DNA of 64,000 nucleotides from Escherichia coli (GCF_003790525.1 NZ_CP033635.1), one strand, 5' to 3'. Counted from the stretch's first letter, positions 1,096 to 10,992 are shown. Notes: a model not told the origin generated them from the letters alone. Translations and numbers: made by a program.

Positions 1096-1450
1096 TGCCT
1101 GCACGCCTGGAAATTTCAAATGAAAGGCATATCTCTTTTACTTATTTCTGCCGCCATATATTTCCCCAAGTATAAAACATTTAACATTTCATCATAAAAG
1201 TTAAAATGTTTTATTCTCTGATAAAACGTGAACTGCATAACAAAATACAGAGAAACAAAGCCAAAAACGAATTAACGCAAACTTAAAACGAAAAATTATA
1301 ATTGTCGCCATCACTCTCCTTAACTAACCTCATTCCCACAACGTTGTTTAAATCATTAATAAATATGCATTAAGGAAAGTCAGTATGTATTTGCTTAGAA
1401 AATAAAAGCTTTTTTTCTGAGACAGGCATTCTTGTTCTGGAGAGAATATA

Positions 1451-2824
1451 ATGAGTTCCGTCATTGAAACTACTCAATCAACTTCATCCGATTCCTTACC
1501 TTTAATACAGCGGATTAGCTACGGCTCACTGGATGTTGCCGGTAATCTGCTCTACTGTTTTGGCTCTACCTACATTCTTTATTTCTACACCGACGTAGCA
1601 GGGATTAGTCTGGCGGTTGCAGGCATAATCCTACTGCTGGCGCGCATTGTAGACGGTATTGATGCGCCAGTGTGGGGAATCATTATCGATAAAACCCATT
1701 CGCGTTATGGAAAATGCCGTCCATGGTTTTTATGGTTACCATTACCTTTTGCTGTATTTAGTGCGCTTTCTTTCTGGTCACCCGATATCAGCATGACAGG
1801 GAAAGCTGTTTATGCAGCAATATCGTACATGTTAGCCAGCATTCTGTTCACTGGGTTGAATACACCATTAAGCGCTATATTACCGCTGATGACGCTGTCA
1901 CCAAAGGAACGCCTGGTATTAAACTCATATCGCATGACTGGTGGGCAAATTGGCGTACTATTAATGAATGCGACAGCATTGCCATTGGTCGCTTTCCTTG
2001 GTAATGGTAACGATAAAGCAGGCTTTATATATACTGCCATAGTCTTTGCCGTAATATCCTGTGCCTTAACGTTGTTTGCCTTTAAAAATATTCGCGAACT
2101 GGATACCGATAAAATACAGCAAGAACCACGACTGCCGATGAAAAAGAGTTTTTCGGCAATGAAAGGGAACTGGCCGTGGCTCCTGATGGTAGTGGCGAAC
2201 CTTATCTTCTGGATTGCCCTACAGCAGCGCAACACTACTATTGTTTACTATTTAACCTACAATCTGGATCGCAAAGATCTGGTCCCGCTGGTTAACAGCC
2301 TCGCCACCATTCAGATCCTGTTTATCATTGCCATTCCGTTCTTCAGTCGCTATCTCACCAAAACCTGGATTTGGATTACCGGGCTGCTGGTTGCGATGTT
2401 AGGCGGGGGCCTCATGTGGCTGGCTGCCGACAGCATCCCTTTGATGATCGCCGCCTGGGTACTCGCCAATATCGGCAGCGGTATCGCCTGTTCTATGCCT
2501 TTCGCGATGCTCGGTTTCGCCGTTGACTTTGGTCGCTGGAAAACCGGCATTAAAGCTACCGGCATTCTGATCGCCTTCGGCAGCACCTTCTGCATCAAGA
2601 TGGGCAGTGGTATCGGTACAGCTTTCGCTGCCTTTATTATGGACAGCTTTGGTTATATCCCCAACCAACAACAGACGGCTGCGGGGTTGGAAGGTATCAG
2701 CCTGGCATTTATCTGGGTCCCTGCGCTGCTCTTTGCTCTCGCGGCTGTACCACTGCTCTTCTTTCGCCAGTATGAAGCGATGGAAGGTCGTATCCAACAC
2801 GATCTGCAAGCCCACAATCGTTGA
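1451..2824 (+). CDS. GPH-family (glycoside-pentoside-hexuronide:cation symporter, MelB/YicJ-like) MFS transporter, 457 aa
   Basis: ATG with upstream GGAGAG; highly hydrophobic multi-span protein; GPH-type motif DGIDAPVWGIIIDKTHSRYGKCRPW in loop 2-3; not present at this position in K-12. Confidence 0.85.
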   Translation: MSSVIETTQSTSSDSLPLIQRISYGSLDVAGNLLYCFGSTYILYFYTDVAGISLAVAGIILLLARIVDGIDAPVWGIIIDKTHSRYGKCRPWFLWLPLPFAVFSALSFWSPDISMTGKAVYAAISYMLASILFTGLNTPLSAILPLMTLSPKERLVLNSYRMTGGQIGVLLMNATALPLVAFLGNGNDKAGFIYTAIVFAVISCALTLFAFKNIRELDTDKIQQEPRLPMKKSFSAMKGNWPWLLMVVANLIFWIALQQRNTTIVYYLTYNLDRKDLVPLVNSLATIQILFIIAIPFFSRYLTKTWIWITGLLVAMLGGGLMWLAADSIPLMIAAWVLANIGSGIACSMPFAMLGFAVDFGRWKTGIKATGILIAFGSTFCIKMGSGIGTAFAAFIMDSFGYIPNQQQTAAGLEGISLAFIWVPALLFALAAVPLLFFRQYEAMEGRIQHDLQAHNR

Positions 2825-2863
2825 ATTTAATCAACATGCCACTTGCTCCTGGGAGGAACAATT

Positions 2864-4903
2864 ATGTCGTTTATTAAGCAAGATCCCCACCGTCTGGTCT
2901 GGCAACAAGACGATCGTTATCTCTGGATTGAAGCCTGGGGCGAAAACAGCTTACGCGTGCGAAGCGGCCGCCATTTACCGGTAATGCGCAATGAAAACTG
3001 GGCGTTAACTCAGGATCCTGGCGATGCTGTCGCTCATATCACCTGGGATGAAAAACAGGCAACGCTGAGAAATGGTAAAATCACTGCCATCGTAAATCTT
3101 CAGGGCCAGCTCTCTTTCTGGCGTAATGATGATAAATGCCTGCTGCAAGAGTTCTGGCGTCAACGTGGCGAAATTGGTGAAGATGAGTCAGCACACGGCC
3201 AATATGTGAGCGCTCTTAATCTACAGGCCCGTGAATTCAAGCCTATTCCTGGCGGGAAATTTACGATTAAGGCACGATTTGAAGCCAACGATGGCGAGAA
3301 ACTCTTTGGCATGGGTCAGTATCAGCAACCAAACCTGGATTTAAAAGGTTGCATGCTGGAGCTGGCACAACGTAACTCGCAGGCTTCTGTTCCCTTCCTG
3401 CTATCAAATCAGGGTTATGGTTTTCTGTGGAATAACCCAGCAATTGGCCGCGTCACCTTCGCGCAAAACGGTACGGAATGGGTAGCAGAAGTCAGTGAAC
3501 AACTGGACTACTGGATCACTGCGGGCGATACTCCGGCTGAGATCAGTGAAGCCTATGCACGAGTAACCGGTACGCCACCGATGATGCCTGATTACGCAAT
3601 GGGGTTCTGGCAATGCAAGCTTCGCTATCGTAATCAACAAGAATTGTTAGAAGTCGCACGCGGCTACAAGCAACGCAATCTTCCGATCTCGGTGATTGTC
3701 ATCGATTTCTTCCATTGGCCGAATCAGGGTGACTGGATGTTCGATCTGCGTGACTGGCCCGATCCCGATGCGATGATCGCCGAATTAAAAGAAATGGGTA
3801 TCGAACTGATGGTTTCATTCTGGCCTACCGTAGATAACCGTACCGAGAGTTATCGGGAGATGAAAGAAAACGGCTGGCTAGTCCACACCGAGCGTGGTTT
3901 GCCTATCAATATGGATTTCCTTGGCAACACCACGTTCTTTGATGCGACACATCCTGGCGCACGGGAATATGTCTGGAACAAAGCCAAACGCAATTATTAC
4001 GATAAAGGCGTGAAACTGTTCTGGCTGGATGAAGCCGAGCCAGAGTTCGGTGTTTACGATTATGACAACTATCGTTACTACGCAGGGCCAGTGCTGGAAG
4101 TCGGTAATATCTATCCGCGTATGTACGCCAAAACGTTCTTCGATGGCATGCAGGCAGCCGGAGAAAAGCAGGTGATCAATTTGCTACGCTGCGCCTGGGC
4201 CGGTAGTCAGAAATATGGTGCCCTGGTGTGGTCAGGCGATATCCACTCCTCCTTCCGTTCTCTGCGCAATCAGTTTGCTGCGGGGCTGAACATGGGAATT
4301 GCCGGGATCCCGTGGTGGACGACGGATATTGGCGGTTTCCACGGTGGCAACATACATGATCCAAAATTTCATGAACTGCTTATTCGCTGGTTCCAGTGGG
4401 GGGTATTCAGCCCAGTAATGCGTTTACATGGCAACCGCGACCCGCAAGTTTTGCCTGAACAACCCTATCGTGATGGCATCGCACAATGTCCGACTGGCGC
4501 GCCGAATGAAGTCTGGAGCTATGGTGAAGAAACCGGTGAAATTCTCACTTCCTGCCTGCAGTTGCGTGAGAAGCTGAAACCTTATATCAGTAAAATTATG
4601 GCTGAGACGCACGAGAAGAACAGCCCGGTAATGCGCACGATGTTCTTTGAGTTTCCAGACCAGGCAGAAAGCTGGAATATTTATGATCAGTACTGCTTTG
4701 GCCCGGACCTTCTCGTTGCCCCTGTAATGCACGAAGGTACACGTTCACGTGATGTCTGGTTGCCTGCCGGAGAGACATGGATCGATTTTTATACCCATGA
4801 ACACTACGCGGGTGGGCAAAAGCTTCATCATTGCGCGCCGCTGCACCAGATACCGGTATTCATTCGTGAGAAAGGGAAATATCGCCAGTTATTACCCGTT
4901 TAA
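2864..4903 (+). CDS. Glycoside hydrolase family 31 alpha-glycosidase (YicI/YihQ-like), ~679 aa
   Basis: ORF track begins at TTG 2843, but ATG 2864 has a GGGAGG Shine-Dalgarno 7 nt upstream; GH31 motifs FWLDEAEPE (candidate nucleophile Asp) and WSGDIHS (candidate acid/base Asp); 19 bp after the transporter stop, so likely one operon. Confidence 0.85.
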   Translation: MSFIKQDPHRLVWQQDDRYLWIEAWGENSLRVRSGRHLPVMRNENWALTQDPGDAVAHITWDEKQATLRNGKITAIVNLQGQLSFWRNDDKCLLQEFWRQRGEIGEDESAHGQYVSALNLQAREFKPIPGGKFTIKARFEANDGEKLFGMGQYQQPNLDLKGCMLELAQRNSQASVPFLLSNQGYGFLWNNPAIGRVTFAQNGTEWVAEVSEQLDYWITAGDTPAEISEAYARVTGTPPMMPDYAMGFWQCKLRYRNQQELLEVARGYKQRNLPISVIVIDFFHWPNQGDWMFDLRDWPDPDAMIAELKEMGIELMVSFWPTVDNRTESYREMKENGWLVHTERGLPINMDFLGNTTFFDATHPGAREYVWNKAKRNYYDKGVKLFWLDEAEPEFGVYDYDNYRYYAGPVLEVGNIYPRMYAKTFFDGMQAAGEKQVINLLRCAWAGSQKYGALVWSGDIHSSFRSLRNQFAAGLNMGIAGIPWWTTDIGGFHGGNIHDPKFHELLIRWFQWGVFSPVMRLHGNRDPQVLPEQPYRDGIAQCPTGAPNEVWSYGEETGEILTSCLQLREKLKPYISKIMAETHEKNSPVMRTMFFEFPDQAESWNIYDQYCFGPDLLVAPVMHEGTRSRDVWLPAGETWIDFYTHEHYAGGQKLHHCAPLHQIPVFIREKGKYRQLLPV

Positions 4904-4924
4904 AGGACATCGTTTGTTCATTAG

Positions 4925-4949
4925 CACGCCCCGTATATAGCGGGGCGTG
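4925..4949. terminator. Perfect 9-bp stem-loop (cacgccccg / cggggcgtg) between the convergent GH31 and nhaR genes
   Basis: Seen directly; short T tract follows on the + strand. Confidence 0.4.
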
Positions 4950-4960
4950 AGTTTTAATAT

Positions 4961-5866
4961 CTATCGTGAGGCGGGAGAAAACAACGAAGAATAATCCGTA
5001 TTGCAGATTCGCTGTACCGCCGGGTGCTGAATCATCCGCTCAGCAAAAATAGCATGGTACTCTTCCATCACATTTTCGACGCGACCAATTTCTACGACAG
5101 TTTTATCGGCATAAAAGTCATATGCATAAAGCGTTGGGGCAACGAAGATTGCATTGTGCATCGCACCAAAAGCTTTCATCAACGCGGCATCATCAAACTC
5201 GCCGAGGATTTCTACGTTTAATCCCTGGGAGTTAAACCAGTTAAGCAATTTGCGCCCTAACATTGAACGTCGCCCAGGAATCAAAAGCCGCCGTTCTTCC
5301 AGACAAGCCGGGAACGGTTTTTCCGGTGGTGGATTTGTACACCAGAAACTCACGCCACATTCGCCAATTCTCACGGAGAACAGACCTTCCTGCTGCGTAG
5401 AATCTATCGGACAGTCGGAAATGATCATATCCAGTTTATGCTGACTTAATTGCTCCAGCAGCATTTCGTGGGTGGATTCGAAGCAGCGAAGATGAATCGG
5501 CTCGCCTTCTACCACTGCGGCGTTAAGTACGCTACTGACCAGGCGTTTAGAAAGTGCATCAGCCACGCCAACGTCAAACAATAAATTGGATTCTTTGCGA
5601 TAGTTCACGATATCCAGCATTTCCTGGCTTAAGGTGAACATTTTATCGGCATAGCGATAGACCAGCTCTCCCAGCTCGCTGGGCTCGAGGCCACGTCCCT
5701 TGCGCTTAAATAATTTGCCTTGCAGGCGCTCTTCCAGCGCCCGAATCTGTCCGGTAATGGTTTGTGGTGTTAAATAAAGCGCCTCCGCTGCGCCAACCAC
5801 GGAACCTTCTTTATAGACATGCCAGAAGTAATACAAGTGGTTGTAATTGATATGAGACATGCTCAT
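4961..5866 (-). CDS. nhaR: LysR-family transcriptional activator NhaR
   Basis: Translation from [41 protein letters not shown]...; 301 aa as in K-12 (ORF track extends 6 codons upstream). Confidence 0.93.
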
Positions 5867-5925
5867 TTCTCTCCCTGATAACAATGAAAAGGGAGCCGTT
5901 TATGGCTCCCCGGTAAACCGTCCTG

Positions 5926-7092
5926 TCAAACTGATGGACGCAAACGAACGCGTAACCAGCTGTATCCAATTACCGCCGAAGAGATAGAACCGACCAGGAT
6001 ACCGAGTTTCGCCCAGTTAATCAGTTCTGGATCTACGCTACCAAAGGCAAGGCTGGCAATAAAGATAGACATAGTAAAACCGATACCGCATAGGATCCCC
6101 ACCGCCATAATTTGCTGATAAGTCGTTCCCTCAGGCAGATGCGCCAGTTTCAAACGCAGCGCCAACCAGCAGAACAGACTAATACCCAGTGGCTTGCCAA
6201 TCAGCAAACCGGCGATGATCCCTAATGGCAGAATGGAGGTCAGGCCATCCAGCGTCACGCCTTGCAGAGATACCCCCGCATTGGCAAACGCAAACAACGG
6301 CAAAATCAGATATGCCACCCACGGATGCAAAACATGCTCCAGACGTTTAGCCGGAGAGCGCCCATGCTTCTCTTTTAACGGAATAAAGAAGCCGACAATG
6401 ACGCCAGCCAGCGTTGCATGGACACCTGATTTCAACACCGCTGTCCACAGTACCACGCCAACCAGAATATAAACGCCCGTGCGACGAACACCACAGATAT
6501 TCAGTACCGCGAGTACGGCAATCGCTACTGCCGCAACGCCGAGAGACGCCATCGATAAGTCATTAGTGTAGAACAATGCGATGATAATGATGGCCCCAAG
6601 ATCGTCGATAATAGCCAGAGCCATCAAAAAGATCTTCAGCGCTAACGGAACACGACTTCCCAACAGCGCCAGCACACCAAGTGCAAAGGCAATGTCAGTA
6701 GCCGCCGGGATCGCCCACCCTTCGCGGGTAATCGGATCGGCATAGTTAAAGGCCAGATAGAGCAATGCCGGCACAATCATCCCACCAATAGCGGCGATAA
6801 CTGGAAATGCGGCCTGGCGTAAGCTGGCTAGCGATCCTTGCATCAGTTCACGTTTAACTTCCAGACCGACTAACAGGAAAAATACCGCCATCAGCGCGTC
6901 ATTTATCCATAACAGCATGTTTTTGTTGATTTCGAGTGAACCAACCCGGAGCTGAACCGGCGTCTCCAGAAAGTCGTGATACCATCCACTGGTTGCGCCG
7001 CTATTGGCCATAATCATCGCCAGGATAGCGGCAATGATAAGAATAATGCCTCCCGAGGCATCACTGCTAAAGAATCGATGCAGATGTTTCAC
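5926..7092 (-). CDS. nhaA: Na+/H+ antiporter NhaA
   Basis: 388-aa polytopic membrane protein [51 protein letters not shown]... Confidence 0.95.
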
Positions 7093-7343
7093 TTTTTATT
7101 TCTCTTTCAGGTGAATAGATCGTTTTTACTATTTTACCCCGCACGAATCATCGTTAAAATCAGATTATAGTGTAGGAATAATTCGTTTTTTACGAACCAT
7201 TGAAGGATTTGTGCCATCAGCGATGAGATGATTTTTTGACGGCTGTAAGCGCTCACGAGTGACCCTAAGCCCTGATAATCATAGCTTAAGGTGAGGATTT
7301 CTGAGGGATTAATTAGGAAAAGTAATAATAAAATCGCACTGTG

Positions 7344-8588
7344 CTATAGCTGTTTATTCCAGAGATGCTTGAAAATATCTAATGTGGAGACAACATTGGC
7401 AGGCGACATTCGGTTTAATGAGGATAGAAAGGGATGAGACTCCAGGAAGTTGATAAAACGAGTCGCGCTTGCTAACGTCGAATACCGCATTTCATTTGCT
7501 TTCTTGTTTCCTGTAAGGTTACAAACAGCCATTGAATAATCACGGGCGGAAAATGTACGCCAAACATTATTTCTCACGCCACCACTCAAAAACAACCGCG
7601 GCGGCGTATCATAATGAGTCGTTTTCTCGCCGCGTTCTTTCACAAATGAAATATGGCACCGGCCTTGATGAATATGCTGTAAATTAGCCATCAGACAACC
7701 ACCTAATATAAAGCACTCGTGATCAAGGTAGTGTTGAATATTTATAGAATATGCTTCAGTCAGTGCTCTAACCAGTTCAAAATGGCGATACGCCGGAAGA
7801 ACCGGTTTCACCAACATCCCCGGATCGTTTTGATGTAATATCGCCCGACCATAATCAATATCAAATAAGGTATCACGCCGCATAGTAAGTAACTCCTTGC
7901 GTTGTACGTGATGCGCCAGTGTACCTGGAGACAAACGCTCTTCATAACTTGATGCATATTGATAATGCGACTCTACCGCTGATGGAGAATAATTTGTTGA
8001 AATAGCGACGACTCTACCGCTTTGTTCTTCTGCGGTAACAAGGCTATAAAGATAGTTATTACTACCGTTAAACTTTACGCGAAAAGCGCGGGTAGATAGA
8101 GAAATATCAGAAGCAGAAGAGTATTGGTAACTTTCTTTATAGTTTACTTCCCGGGCTAGTTTCATCAACTCACGGTTAAGCCCTGTGCTATTAAGAAGTA
8201 ATAATTTACGGATATCTGCAAGTGAAGCGCCTTGATCAATCATCAATGCTAAATGTGTTCTTCGCGGCGTTGTATTTACATGATCCAGAGTGATAAAAGT
8301 TCTGGAACAATGATGACAATACATTCTCCTCTGCCCCTGAGCTGAATAGCCATACTTTTTCAGAGATGTGCTTCCGCAAGCTGAACATTGTGGAACCAAC
8401 CCTCTCCATGAATGATTAACACGATTACGATAAATATTAAGAGATCGTTCAGATATCACAGGAAACAAGTAACCGCATTCCCGACATAAAATATTTTTTC
8501 CTTGTGCAATATAATCCTGGCTATTCAACAACCCCAGGTTTTTGCATCCTGGTGTTTTGCAACAATCAACATTTACGTTGGTAAACAT
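7344..8588 (-). CDS. Uncharacterised Cys-rich protein with two predicted CxxC...CxxC zinc-ribbon modules (InsA-like), ~414 aa
   Basis: ORF track starts at 8624, but the ATG at 8588 (MFTNVNV) has AGGGAG 6 nt upstream; motifs CKTPGC...CRECG and CSACGSTSLKKYGYSAQGQRRMYCHHCSRTF; C-terminal ~300 aa with no motif I recognise. Confidence 0.7.
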   Translation of the reverse strand: MFTNVNVDCCKTPGCKNLGLLNSQDYIAQGKNILCRECGYLFPVISERSLNIYRNRVNHSWRGLVPQCSACGSTSLKKYGYSAQGQRRMYCHHCSRTFITLDHVNTTPRRTHLALMIDQGASLADIRKLLLLNSTGLNRELMKLAREVNYKESYQYSSASDISLSTRAFRVKFNGSNNYLYSLVTAEEQSGRVVAISTNYSPSAVESHYQYASSYEERLSPGTLAHHVQRKELLTMRRDTLFDIDYGRAILHQNDPGMLVKPVLPAYRHFELVRALTEAYSINIQHYLDHECFILGGCLMANLQHIHQGRCHISFVKERGEKTTHYDTPPRLFLSGGVRNNVWRTFSARDYSMAVCNLTGNKKANEMRYSTLASATRFINFLESHPFLSSLNRMSPANVVSTLDIFKHLWNKQL

Positions 8589-8628
8589 ATTCACTCCCTG
8601 CGAATACCCGGATATTATCGTCATATGT

Positions 8629-8669
8629 CAAAGAAAAGAACCTGACTCAATGTGTAACATTGAATCAGG
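8629..8669 (-). terminator. Candidate intrinsic terminator/attenuator between the sulfatase gene and the Cys-rich gene
   Basis: 12-bp inverted repeat cctgactcaatg(tgtaa)cattgaatcagg; on the minus-strand RNA the stem is complete with one G-U pair and is followed by UUCUUUUCUUU. Confidence 0.45.
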
Positions 8670-8717
8670 CGGGCATGGCCCTGAAAGGCATACATTACAT
8701 TTATTATGGTTATCAGA

Positions 8718-10211
8718 TTAGCCCCAGGTTACCGCTTCCGGTTTATCACCTCTGGCTTTCATTAATGAATCATTATCAATATCGGCTTTATACTTTAAGA
8801 ACTTACCATACATTTGTTTTTCAATGTCTGGATTTTTACCTATCTGATTAATGGTCTCAAAACGATCGGTTTTGAGGTTGTATAGGTACTTTGGCTTATT
8901 GTTACGATCGATGATCATTTTCCAGTCACCATCACGTATCGCCCATTCGTCGGTTGGATCATCCTGGAATGGCATGTCAATTCCGAAGATTAATGGCTTT
9001 TCACGTTTTAGCGCTTTGTTCTCAAGGACAGGAACCAACGATTCGCCATCAAAAGTCCGGTCCGTCGGTAATTTGAAGTTCATCATTTTCGCCAGCGTAG
9101 GCATCCAGTCCAGACCATAAACAGGCGTATCTGAAACCATTCCCTTTGGAAGATGCTTTCCGTATTTAATAATCGCCGGAACACGGATGCCACCTTCCCA
9201 GAGATTATCCTTGCGACCACGTAATCCATCAGTTTCCCCTGCCAAATTCAGTTCATAAACTTTGCGCGCTTCACGCGTTACTGGTCCGTTATCACTGGTA
9301 AAAATAACGATGGTGTTATCTTCTTCACCCATCGCTTTGATTTTATCCAGTACTTTTCCAACCTGAGCATCCAGATAACTGATGTTGGCATAATATTCTC
9401 CTGTACCACGCCAGGGTTTATCCGCCCAGTCGCCATAAAATAAATCAGGATGCTGCTTCTGATAGTCGCTCATATATTGTGAGTACATGTCGAGGTATTT
9501 TTTGGGCGAAGCCAGGGGACTGTGCACTTCGGTAAAAGCGACATAAAGGAAGAAAGGCTTACTGTCCTTTTTGTTATCCAACCAGTTGACGACTTCCGAA
9601 CTGACATACTCACCACTCATTTTATCGGAACGTGGTGTGGGTTGCCCGTTACGCAACCAGCCCGTTGGATAGACCATGCCAAAACGGGGACGCTCCTTCG
9701 CATTATCCAGAGTAGCGTCGGTAACAAAACCCGCCGTATTAACCAGTGAGTAATCAAAGCCCATATCTTTTGCCTGCGGCTGATCGGTGCGATCGCCGCC
9801 TGCATTCAGATGCAGCTTACCCATCATGGCCGTGTCGTACCCTTGCGCTTTGAGTAGATTAGCAATCGTGAGTTCATTACGCCCTAATGCCACATCTTTT
9901 CCCGTTGGGATCCATGAGCGTATGCCGGTACGAAATGGCATCCGCCCTGTTAATAGTCCCGCCCGTGAAGGAGAACTTAAGGGGGCAGGTGCATAATAGT
10001 CGGTAAATTTGACGCCTTCCTGGGCAAGCCTGTCTATATTGGGCGTTTTAACGATCTGATGTCCATATGTTGCCAAATCACCATAGCCTAAATCATCCGC
10101 CATAATGATGACTAAATTGGGTTGTTTAGTTTCGGCGGCTACGGCTGGATTAAAAGCATTCCCTGTGCAAACTGCAAGGCCGATCAAACTGGCCATTAAT
10201 GTTTTCTGCAT
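8718..10211 (-). CDS. Secreted sulfatase (arylsulfatase family), Ser-type active-site motif SSPSR, ~497 aa
   Basis: Sulfatase signature PNLVIIMADDLGYGDL, active-site block PLSSPSRAGLLTGR (Ser at the formylglycine position), second signature GYDTAMMGKLH; N-terminal signal peptide MQKTLMASLIGLAVCTGNA; start chosen at ATG 10211 with AGGGA RBS (track ORF extends to 10247). Confidence 0.85.
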   Translation of the reverse strand: MQKTLMASLIGLAVCTGNAFNPAVAAETKQPNLVIIMADDLGYGDLATYGHQIVKTPNIDRLAQEGVKFTDYYAPAPLSSPSRAGLLTGRMPFRTGIRSWIPTGKDVALGRNELTIANLLKAQGYDTAMMGKLHLNAGGDRTDQPQAKDMGFDYSLVNTAGFVTDATLDNAKERPRFGMVYPTGWLRNGQPTPRSDKMSGEYVSSEVVNWLDNKKDSKPFFLYVAFTEVHSPLASPKKYLDMYSQYMSDYQKQHPDLFYGDWADKPWRGTGEYYANISYLDAQVGKVLDKIKAMGEEDNTIVIFTSDNGPVTREARKVYELNLAGETDGLRGRKDNLWEGGIRVPAIIKYGKHLPKGMVSDTPVYGLDWMPTLAKMMNFKLPTDRTFDGESLVPVLENKALKREKPLIFGIDMPFQDDPTDEWAIRDGDWKMIIDRNNKPKYLYNLKTDRFETINQIGKNPDIEKQMYGKFLKYKADIDNDSLMKARGDKPEAVTWG

Positions 10212-10230
10212 AATTATTCCCTGATGAAAA

Positions 10231-10992
10231 TTAGAAATCATAACCAAGCATATAAATCATTTGATCGCCAAAACCATCGTAGCCCAACTTATTATCGAAA
10301 TAACGCCACGTCACACTGGCTTTCCAGCGAGGATAGAACTTCCAGGCCACTGTTAAACCGCCATTTAGCCCATTCCGACCAAATTGTTGTTCCGCATAGG
10401 CATCATTTCTGTCCAGTTCTATTTCATTCCAGTTAGATAAAACAAATTTTTCGTCAAATAACGTAAAAGGTAATACTGCTGTCCAGCCAACAACATAACC
10501 ATTCCAGCCATTTGTTTGTCCATATTTGGCTGAGACGTAGTCTCCAGATTGATTATGTAATCCAATATACGGTTTAAAAAACCCCCATGAACCATTCCAG
10601 CCGAGGTAGCCCAAACCATAAAACATATCAAGATCGTCACCCCATGAGTTATCCCATTGACCATAGATCTTGCCAAAGAAAGTCATATTGGAGTCAAAGA
10701 GTCTGACATGTGTCATAGCAGAAACGGTATGATTACGCCCCGCTACGGCATGGTTAAGCACATTGCTTTCATAAAATGAGTAAAACTCGGCTTCTTTAAA
10801 ATTCACACCAAAGTCTGCAGTCACTTTCCATACTTCACCACGATGAGTGTTAACGAAGCCACTATTCCAGTCAGCATAACCTGCATTTATTGAGCCAAAG
10901 GAACCTTTATATTCTAATGAAGAATATGCAGGAAGGTGATAGAAAATCGTTGTCAGGGCACACGCAATAAGAAGCCGTCTTTTGGCAGACAT
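10231..10992 (-). CDS. Tsx/OmpK-like outer-membrane channel protein, 253 aa
   Basis: Signal peptide MSAKRRLLIACALTTIFYHLPAYS, Trp/Tyr/Gly-rich beta-barrel-like sequence, C-terminal Phe; WDNSWGDDLD block resembles Tsx; GGAGAG RBS; ends 19 bp upstream of the sulfatase start. Confidence 0.7.
   Translation of the reverse strand: MSAKRRLLIACALTTIFYHLPAYSSLEYKGSFGSINAGYADWNSGFVNTHRGEVWKVTADFGVNFKEAEFYSFYESNVLNHAVAGRNHTVSAMTHVRLFDSNMTFFGKIYGQWDNSWGDDLDMFYGLGYLGWNGSWGFFKPYIGLHNQSGDYVSAKYGQTNGWNGYVVGWTAVLPFTLFDEKFVLSNWNEIELDRNDAYAEQQFGRNGLNGGLTVAWKFYPRWKASVTWRYFDNKLGYDGFGDQMIYMLGYDF

Follow-up and report, generated by a model that had tools for sequence, protein, structure and literature searches.

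We wanted to define the substrate of a glycoside hydrolase of family 31 (GH31) encoded in a 64,000-nucleotide stretch of Escherichia coli DNA (GCF_003790525.1, NZ_CP033635.1; hereafter the window). The initial annotation had hesitated between an alpha-xylosidase-like and a sulfoquinovosidase-like enzyme, and the second reading would have given the window two separate loci of organosulfur metabolism. The open frame runs from 2843 to 4903 on the plus strand, with an ATG at 2864 and a stop codon at 4901-4903, and direct reading of the sequence places a ribosome-binding site, GGGAGGA (2851-2857, plus strand), 6 nt upstream of this ATG. The gene first delimited at 2864-4903, with a product of about 679 aa, is thus supported by the frame, by the ribosome-binding site and by the RefSeq CDS, which in E. 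coli SMS-3-5 is WP_000008159.1, named 'glycoside hydrolase family 31 protein'; no literature mention of this protein was found by accession or locus tag. The N-terminus (MSFIKQDPHRLVW...) is devoid of signal-peptide character, and the enzyme is therefore expected to be cytoplasmic.

The assignment to GH31 was confirmed by three Pfam domains, PF01055 (TIM barrel; 269.9 bits for a cut-off of 23.5, E 4e-80), PF21365 (C-terminal; 96.4 bits, cut-off 24.4) and PF13802 (N-terminal; 31.7 bits, cut-off 27), as well as by the two catalytic blocks that had been recognized at first. The block WLDEAEPE (residues 387-394; 4022-4045, plus strand) contains the nucleophile D389 (codon 4028-4030), which aligned with YicI D416, YihQ D405 and BoGH31 D553. 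The block WSGDIHS (residues 456-462; 4229-4249, plus strand) contains the general acid/base D459 (codon 4238-4240), aligned with YicI D482, YihQ D472 and BoGH31 D630. No PA14 domain was matched by Pfam in the 679-aa protein.

The GH31 gene belongs to a cassette of two genes only, 3.9 kb long (window 1097-4955) and located between rpsT and nhaR. The other gene (1451-2824, plus strand) encodes a GPH-family cation symporter of 457 aa (Pfam MFS_2, E 1.4e-77), which scored 363.8 bits against TIGR00792 (gph), above the cut-off of 231.35, and did not reach the cut-off of any specific equivalog (YagG, UidB, MelB). Its closest solved relative is MelB (151 bits). The segment 1451-4903 is 100% identical to the corresponding one of E. 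coli SMS-3-5 and others, where RefSeq describes an 'MFS transporter' followed by the GH31 protein. Upstream of the symporter gene lies an AT-rich leader (1097-1450, plus strand; 31% GC), which is presumed to be the promoter/regulatory region. It contains a weak CRP-like site, CGTGAACTGCATAACA, at 1227-1242 with 2 mismatches. Since a consensus scan of 1097-1450 returned no sigma-70 match, the promoter function of the leader is a presumption only. No regulator gene is present in the cassette, and the two genes would be transcribed together. Downstream, an intrinsic terminator (4925-4959, plus strand) made of a strong hairpin at 4925-4949, with a 10-bp stem including 8 G-C pairs, and then a T-rich tail, separates the stop codon of the GH31 gene from that of nhaR, which is convergent.

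Comparison with the empty site of CFT073, in which nhaR and rpsT are 95 bp apart, placed the left junction of the cassette at about 1096 and the right one at about 4956. In K-12, the rpsT-nhaR site carries IS1A. A mobile-element origin of the cassette was considered and rejected, as neither an IS element nor an integrase nor flanking repeats were found at its junctions. The GC content recorded during this check was 47.6% for the cassette and 50.9% for the window.

Of 5426 complete E. coli genomes, 639 (about 12%) contained the cassette, always on the chromosome. Two allele classes occupy this single site, one at 99% identity or more in 73 genomes and the other at about 87.5% in 566. In Citrobacter species, the cassette lies at the syntenic position between rpsT and nhaR; dS against Citrobacter is saturated. 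The dN/dS calculated between the two E. coli alleles was 0.038 for the GH31 gene and 0.029 for the symporter gene. These values indicate that both genes are maintained by strong purifying selection and that the GH31 gene is a real, selected gene.

To which GH31 enzymes is the protein related? The top match in a PDB sequence search was the alpha-xylosidase MeXyl31 (5zn6; 1035 bits, residues 9-672), with 64.8% identity over 660 aa, end to end and with a single gap. Matches 2 to 5 were also alpha-xylosidases, namely 6dru (A. niger), 7kmp (Xanthomonas), 5jou (BoGH31A) and 2xvg (CjXyl31A), while YicI and YihQ (5aed) scored 166 and 108.8 bits, respectively. MeXyl31 comes from a soil metagenome (PDB 5zn6/5zn7) and resembles the E. 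coli protein in its size (687 versus 679 aa), in its three domains without PA14 and in the identical blocks DFFHWPNQGDW, FWLDEAEPE, WSGDI, WWTTDIGGF and RLHG. The initial annotation had also compared sizes, correctly giving YihQ (678 aa) as closer to the 679 aa of the query than YicI (772 aa), but the hint drawn from this was misleading because an alpha-xylosidase, MeXyl31, has nearly the same length. Two features set the E. coli protein apart from MeXyl31: it has a defined host (SMS-3-5 and 638 other complete E. coli genomes) and a dedicated GPH symporter. Moreover, 35% of the residues differ between the two proteins, and the activity of the E. coli one is predicted.

Structural comparison gave the same picture. 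An AlphaFold model, for which 26 family members were used (pTM 0.83), matched 5zn6 at rank 1 in Foldseek (TM-score 0.93, E 1e-89), followed by the alpha-xylosidases 6dru, 7kmp/7knc, 2xvk and 5jou. The first non-xylosidase, 6jr6, appeared at rank 12, and YihQ was absent from the best 50 matches. The pLDDT of the model is under 50 in three loops (99-127, 151-176 and 393-414), and as loop 393-414 comes directly after the nucleophile, details of the pocket are not readable from the model. Altogether, the E. coli gene is predicted to encode an ordinary intracellular MeXyl31-type alpha-xylosidase of subfamily GH31_4, on the basis of the Pfam, PDB and Foldseek matches. The GH31_4 label comes by homology from MeXyl31, which is placed in this subfamily in PMC10792220 (citing Matsuzawa 2016 and Nakamichi 2022). 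Of the two readings first set against each other, the alpha-xylosidase-like one thus stood and the sulfoquinovosidase-like one fell, with the precision that the nearest enzyme is MeXyl31 (GH31_4) and not YicI (GH31_3).

The active site was read by alignment with BoGH31, whose -1 subsite, defined on the covalent intermediate, consists of D441, D553 (nucleophile), R613, D630, D659 and H709 (PMC4967831). All six counterparts are identical in the E. coli protein (D281, D389, R442, D459, D488 and H522), and the aromatic residue stacking at the +1 subsite, W513 in BoGH31, is replaced by F352. These seven residues are invariant across the 26 family members. The six -1 residues alone are not proof of xylose specificity, because much of GH31 has them.

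Taken together, these results make it very probable that the cassette is a self-contained sugar-utilisation unit, in which the GPH symporter imports a small alpha-D-xyloside and the GH31_4 alpha-xylosidase hydrolyses it. The natural substrate would accordingly be a small alpha-D-xyloside entering the cell through the cation symporter. Once in the cytoplasm, it would be cleaved by the retaining GH31_4 enzyme through double displacement, with D389 as the nucleophile and D459 as the acid/base. Xylose and the aglycone would be released, and the xylose would be able to pass into the xylose catabolism of the host. At 65% identity, the alignment leaves room for an aglycone (+1 subsite) specificity that could differ from that of MeXyl31.

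We looked at the gene neighbourhoods of orthologues with 55-84% identity to the query, at 79 loci from as many species, and scored neighbours against a reference panel. A GPH symporter gene lies directly upstream of the GH31 gene at 10 of the 79 loci, and these are the ten Enterobacterales loci, all of which show this conserved pairing. At 47 loci, mostly Firmicutes ABC-transporter operons, an ABC permease gene is located within 10 kb, the usual order being histidine kinase, AraC-type response regulator, sugar-binding protein, two permeases and then the GH31 gene. In Lachnospiraceae/Oscillospiraceae operons, up to three alpha-xylosidase genes follow a two-component sensor and an ABC importer. 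A second GH31 gene was detected within 5 kb, with 11 YicI-like and 8 query-like matches in overlapping sets. Two kinds of protein are encoded by these second genes: YicI orthologues, at 11 loci and with 50-59% identity to the alpha-xylosidase of E. coli, and a paralogue of the MeXyl31 type. Judging from these sequences, the paired GH31 genes share a predicted alpha-xyloside theme.

The alternative that survives best, although we consider it unlikely, is that the protein is an alpha-xylosidase of the xyloglucan pathway, with isoprimeverose or xyloglucan oligosaccharides as its substrates, and is functionally redundant with YicI/YicJ. The presence of YicI orthologues in the operons of Firmicutes orthologues would agree with this, as would the layout of the cassette, since a GPH symporter gene followed by a gene for a cytoplasmic GH31 alpha-xylosidase is also what yicJ-yicI of K-12 looks like. 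YicI prefers isoprimeverose. It shares with the query the catalytic Asp pair and a phenylalanine at the position of YihQ Y508, but it belongs to GH31_3, has 772 aa and is only 25% identical, and its C307, W345 and K414 correspond to F282, S318 and W387 in the query. Moreover, E. coli is not known to have the other xyloglucan-degrading enzymes, which we count against such a pathway. Within GH31_4 itself, xyloglucan oligosaccharides are the specific substrates of CjXyl31A, BoGH31 and Xac1773 (PMC10792220, PMC4967831), and the six -1 subsite residues are all kept between them and the query. However, these are proteins of 955-1020 aa with PA14 and extra C-terminal domains that the query lacks, with about 23% identity to it in Foldseek and 256-270 bits in phmmer, where the match covers the catalytic half. 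The PA14 domain of the xyloglucan-oligosaccharide-specific GH31_4 enzymes is thought to bind extended oligosaccharides (PMC4967831), and its lack in the query also speaks against substrates of this kind. Finally, MeXyl31, the closest characterised relative, cleaves pNP-alpha-xyloside and is reported to be inactive on isoprimeverose and on the xyloglucan oligosaccharides XXXG/XLLG (PMC10792220).

An alpha-xylosidase acting on a small alpha-xyloside also has to be weighed against another alpha-glycosidase (alpha-glucosidase, transglycosidase or other), in which case the clade would hydrolyse xylosides only as a side activity. Predicting the specificity of GH31 enzymes is difficult, and homologues are called 'family 31 glucosidase' in some databases. 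All NCBIfam equivalogs also stay far under their cut-offs on the query, with 245.9 bits against 606 for the alpha-xylosidase model NF007940 (YicI equivalog) and 221 against 800 for MalA. In addition, MeXyl31 and AxyC have no known natural substrate according to PMC10792220, and the pNP-xyloside activity of MeXyl31-type enzymes could be a proxy for another alpha-glycoside. Nevertheless, when AxyC, a GH31_4 enzyme whose preference resembles that of MeXyl31, was tested on pNP substrates, pNP-alpha-xyloside was the only one cleaved (PMC10792220). All five nearest solved relatives of the query are alpha-xylosidases, and its orthologues co-occur with those of YicI, so that we regard this alternative as very improbable.

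Least probable is a sulfoquinovosidase freeing sulfoquinovose from SQ-glycerol or SQDG, which we rejected on the motif, similarity, fold ranking, gene context and gene content of the host. YihQ (GH31_13) is close to the query in length and has the GH31 fold and the catalytic Asp pair in common with it, but in EcYihQ and AtSQase the sulfonate and the side chain are recognised through the Q/E-RWY motif, formed by Q288, R301, W304 and Y508 (PMC12780224). None of these four residues is kept in the MAFFT alignment of the query to YihQ, where they read L273, P286, G289 and F492, respectively. Among the 26 family members, L273, G289 and F492 are invariant and P286 is kept in at least 90%. MAFFT, BLASTP and profile-profile hhalign gave one and the same register, with W291 of the query paired with YihQ W306 and DIGGF with DIGGY. 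By BLASTP, identity to YihQ is 26% and limited to the C-terminal 400 aa, and the YihQ equivalog NF007746 scored 200.1 bits, below its cut-off of 553. The initial annotation had itself held that a lack of the signature residues and a clear clustering with alpha-xylosidases would refute a sulfoquinovosidase, and both were observed.

The genes around the orthologues do not point to sulfoglycolysis either. YihR, YihS, YihT or YihV homologues were found within 10 kb at none of the 79 loci, and a YihU-like dehydrogenase gene at 1, 5.4 kb off and on the opposite strand. A GPH transporter gene adjoins the query as it does for yihO/yihP, but the identity of the symporter to YihP, YihO and YicJ is about 28% in each case, which makes it uninformative as a clue to specificity. 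Furthermore, SMS-3-5, a 100% match strain, already possesses its own complete yihO-yihV/csqR operon, 4.3 Mb from the cassette. Because non-canonical sulfoquinovosidases devoid of the RWY motif have been described (SqgH; PMC12780224), an enzyme of that type was also considered and judged unlikely: the SqgH clade, marked by R302, T377, K412 and F513 in AmSqgH, sits beside GH31_3 and GH31_6, and the E. coli GH31_3 enzyme has no PNPSQ activity (PMC12780224). The query probably lies outside this clade, being 25% identical to YicI and 65% to a GH31_4 enzyme, and it has W387 at the position of YicI K414, which by numbering is probably AmSqgH K412.

The nearby sulfatase cluster had been the other reason to think of sulfur. 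It does lie across nhaR/nhaA, as first noted, at window 7344-10992, its start being 2.4 kb from the GH31 stop codon. However, this cluster beside nhaA is present in 1281 genomes while the cassette is present in 639, and in CFT073 the cluster occurs but the GH31 gene does not, which indicates that the two are independent accessory loci. A sulfatase gene also adjoins the operon of the Blautia producta orthologue and one Lachnospiraceae orthologue. Sulfatases were found within 10 kb at only 2 of the 79 loci, so that the one next to the B. producta operon looks incidental. A functional link between the GH31 gene and the sulfatase cluster was thus rejected on the genome distribution and the neighbourhood survey, and the suggestion of two organosulfur loci in the window was not upheld.

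The main value of these results is to remove a false lead: there is no second locus for sulfoquinovose or organosulfur metabolism in the window, and the GH31 gene, which does not encode a second sulfoquinovosidase, has no link to sulfur metabolism. They also sharpen the annotation, from the RefSeq 'glycoside hydrolase family 31 protein' to a predicted MeXyl31-type alpha-xylosidase of GH31_4 that has its cognate GPH symporter, and they describe the cassette as a strain-variable carbohydrate trait of E. coli, syntenic with that of Citrobacter. For the family, we tentatively suggest that the MeXyl31-type branch of GH31_4 may target small alpha-xylosides that are not yet identified and do not derive from xyloglucan. 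The E. coli cassette belongs to this branch, as do the Lachnospiraceae/Oscillospiraceae operons, which are widespread. Because this class of enzymes has no known natural substrate, the cassette offers an easy genetic handle, and if the branch does target alpha-xylosides other than those of xyloglucan, SMS-3-5 with its 3.9-kb cassette would be a tractable genetic system for finding the substrate.

We looked at the polymorphism of the core genes beside the symporter-GH31 cassette and found nhaR and nhaA (window 4956-7332) to be unusually polymorphic among E. coli lineages. Over the last 387 bp of nhaR, CFT073 and the window are only 78% identical, and nhaA shows 92.8% identity between the window and EcPF7 with a dS of 0.32. 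In contrast, rpsT is 100% identical. These results suggest that the whole segment from nhaA to the symporter gene was imported by recombination. The cassette leader (31% GC) contains a CRP-like half-palindrome, CGTGAACTGCATAACA (window 1227-1242), with two mismatches to TGTGA-N6-TCACA; conservation of this leader reaches 83% in the second allele of E. coli and is slight in Citrobacter. E. coli strains 2016C-3878 and AR Bank #0349 each carry an ISApl1 element (IS30-like) inside the region matching the symporter and GH31 genes (matches H1 and H2, NZ_CP029747.1 436258-440782 and NZ_CP041996.1 4077558-4082082, equivalent to window 1451-4903). Their annotation splits the GH31 gene into two pieces, which suggests that the cassette was inactivated recently in both strains.

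The initial annotation had raised a possible link between the GH31 gene and organosulfur metabolism. The sole hint of any such sulfur connection is a sulfatase gene directly adjoining the operon of the orthologue in Blautia producta (L011 1702-3201) and in a Lachnospiraceae MAG (L031), where 42 bp separate it from the downstream GH31 gene. This arrangement is rare, being seen at two of the 79 loci in the survey and at the B. producta locus, which was fetched separately, and is probably a coincidence. In gut Firmicutes (Blautia L050 and L056; L046, L087, L088, and others), operons combine a histidine kinase, an AraC-type response regulator, and an ABC importer with up to three GH31 genes, namely a MeXyl31-type enzyme, a MeXyl31-type paralogue, and a YicI orthologue. 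They represent a conserved multi-alpha-xylosidase locus.

In the sulfatase cluster, a 426-aa ORF (window 7344-8624, minus strand) lies between nhaA and the sulfatase gene. Its RefSeq name derives from an IS1-type zinc-ribbon domain, to which it shows only a weak match at residues 80-111, and no Pfam domain was found in it. In CFT073 and EcPF7, homologues adjoin the same sulfatase cluster; in Citrobacter they are found near nhaA. At the nhaA-side locus of two Citrobacter (L017 and L018), an anSME radical-SAM maturase accompanies the homologue, together with an arylsulfotransferase and a sulfatase in L017. The ORF looks like a component of the sulfatase locus that awaits characterisation, rather than a transposase.

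Outside the window, SMS-3-5 carries a P2-like prophage integrated beside cpxP (NC_010498.1 4408933-4442221).

Finally, K-12 yihQ (L002 9241-11277), used as a query against the complete E. coli genomes, was present in only 3916 of 5426 (72%). Therefore, the sulfoglycolysis operon is itself accessory in E. coli.
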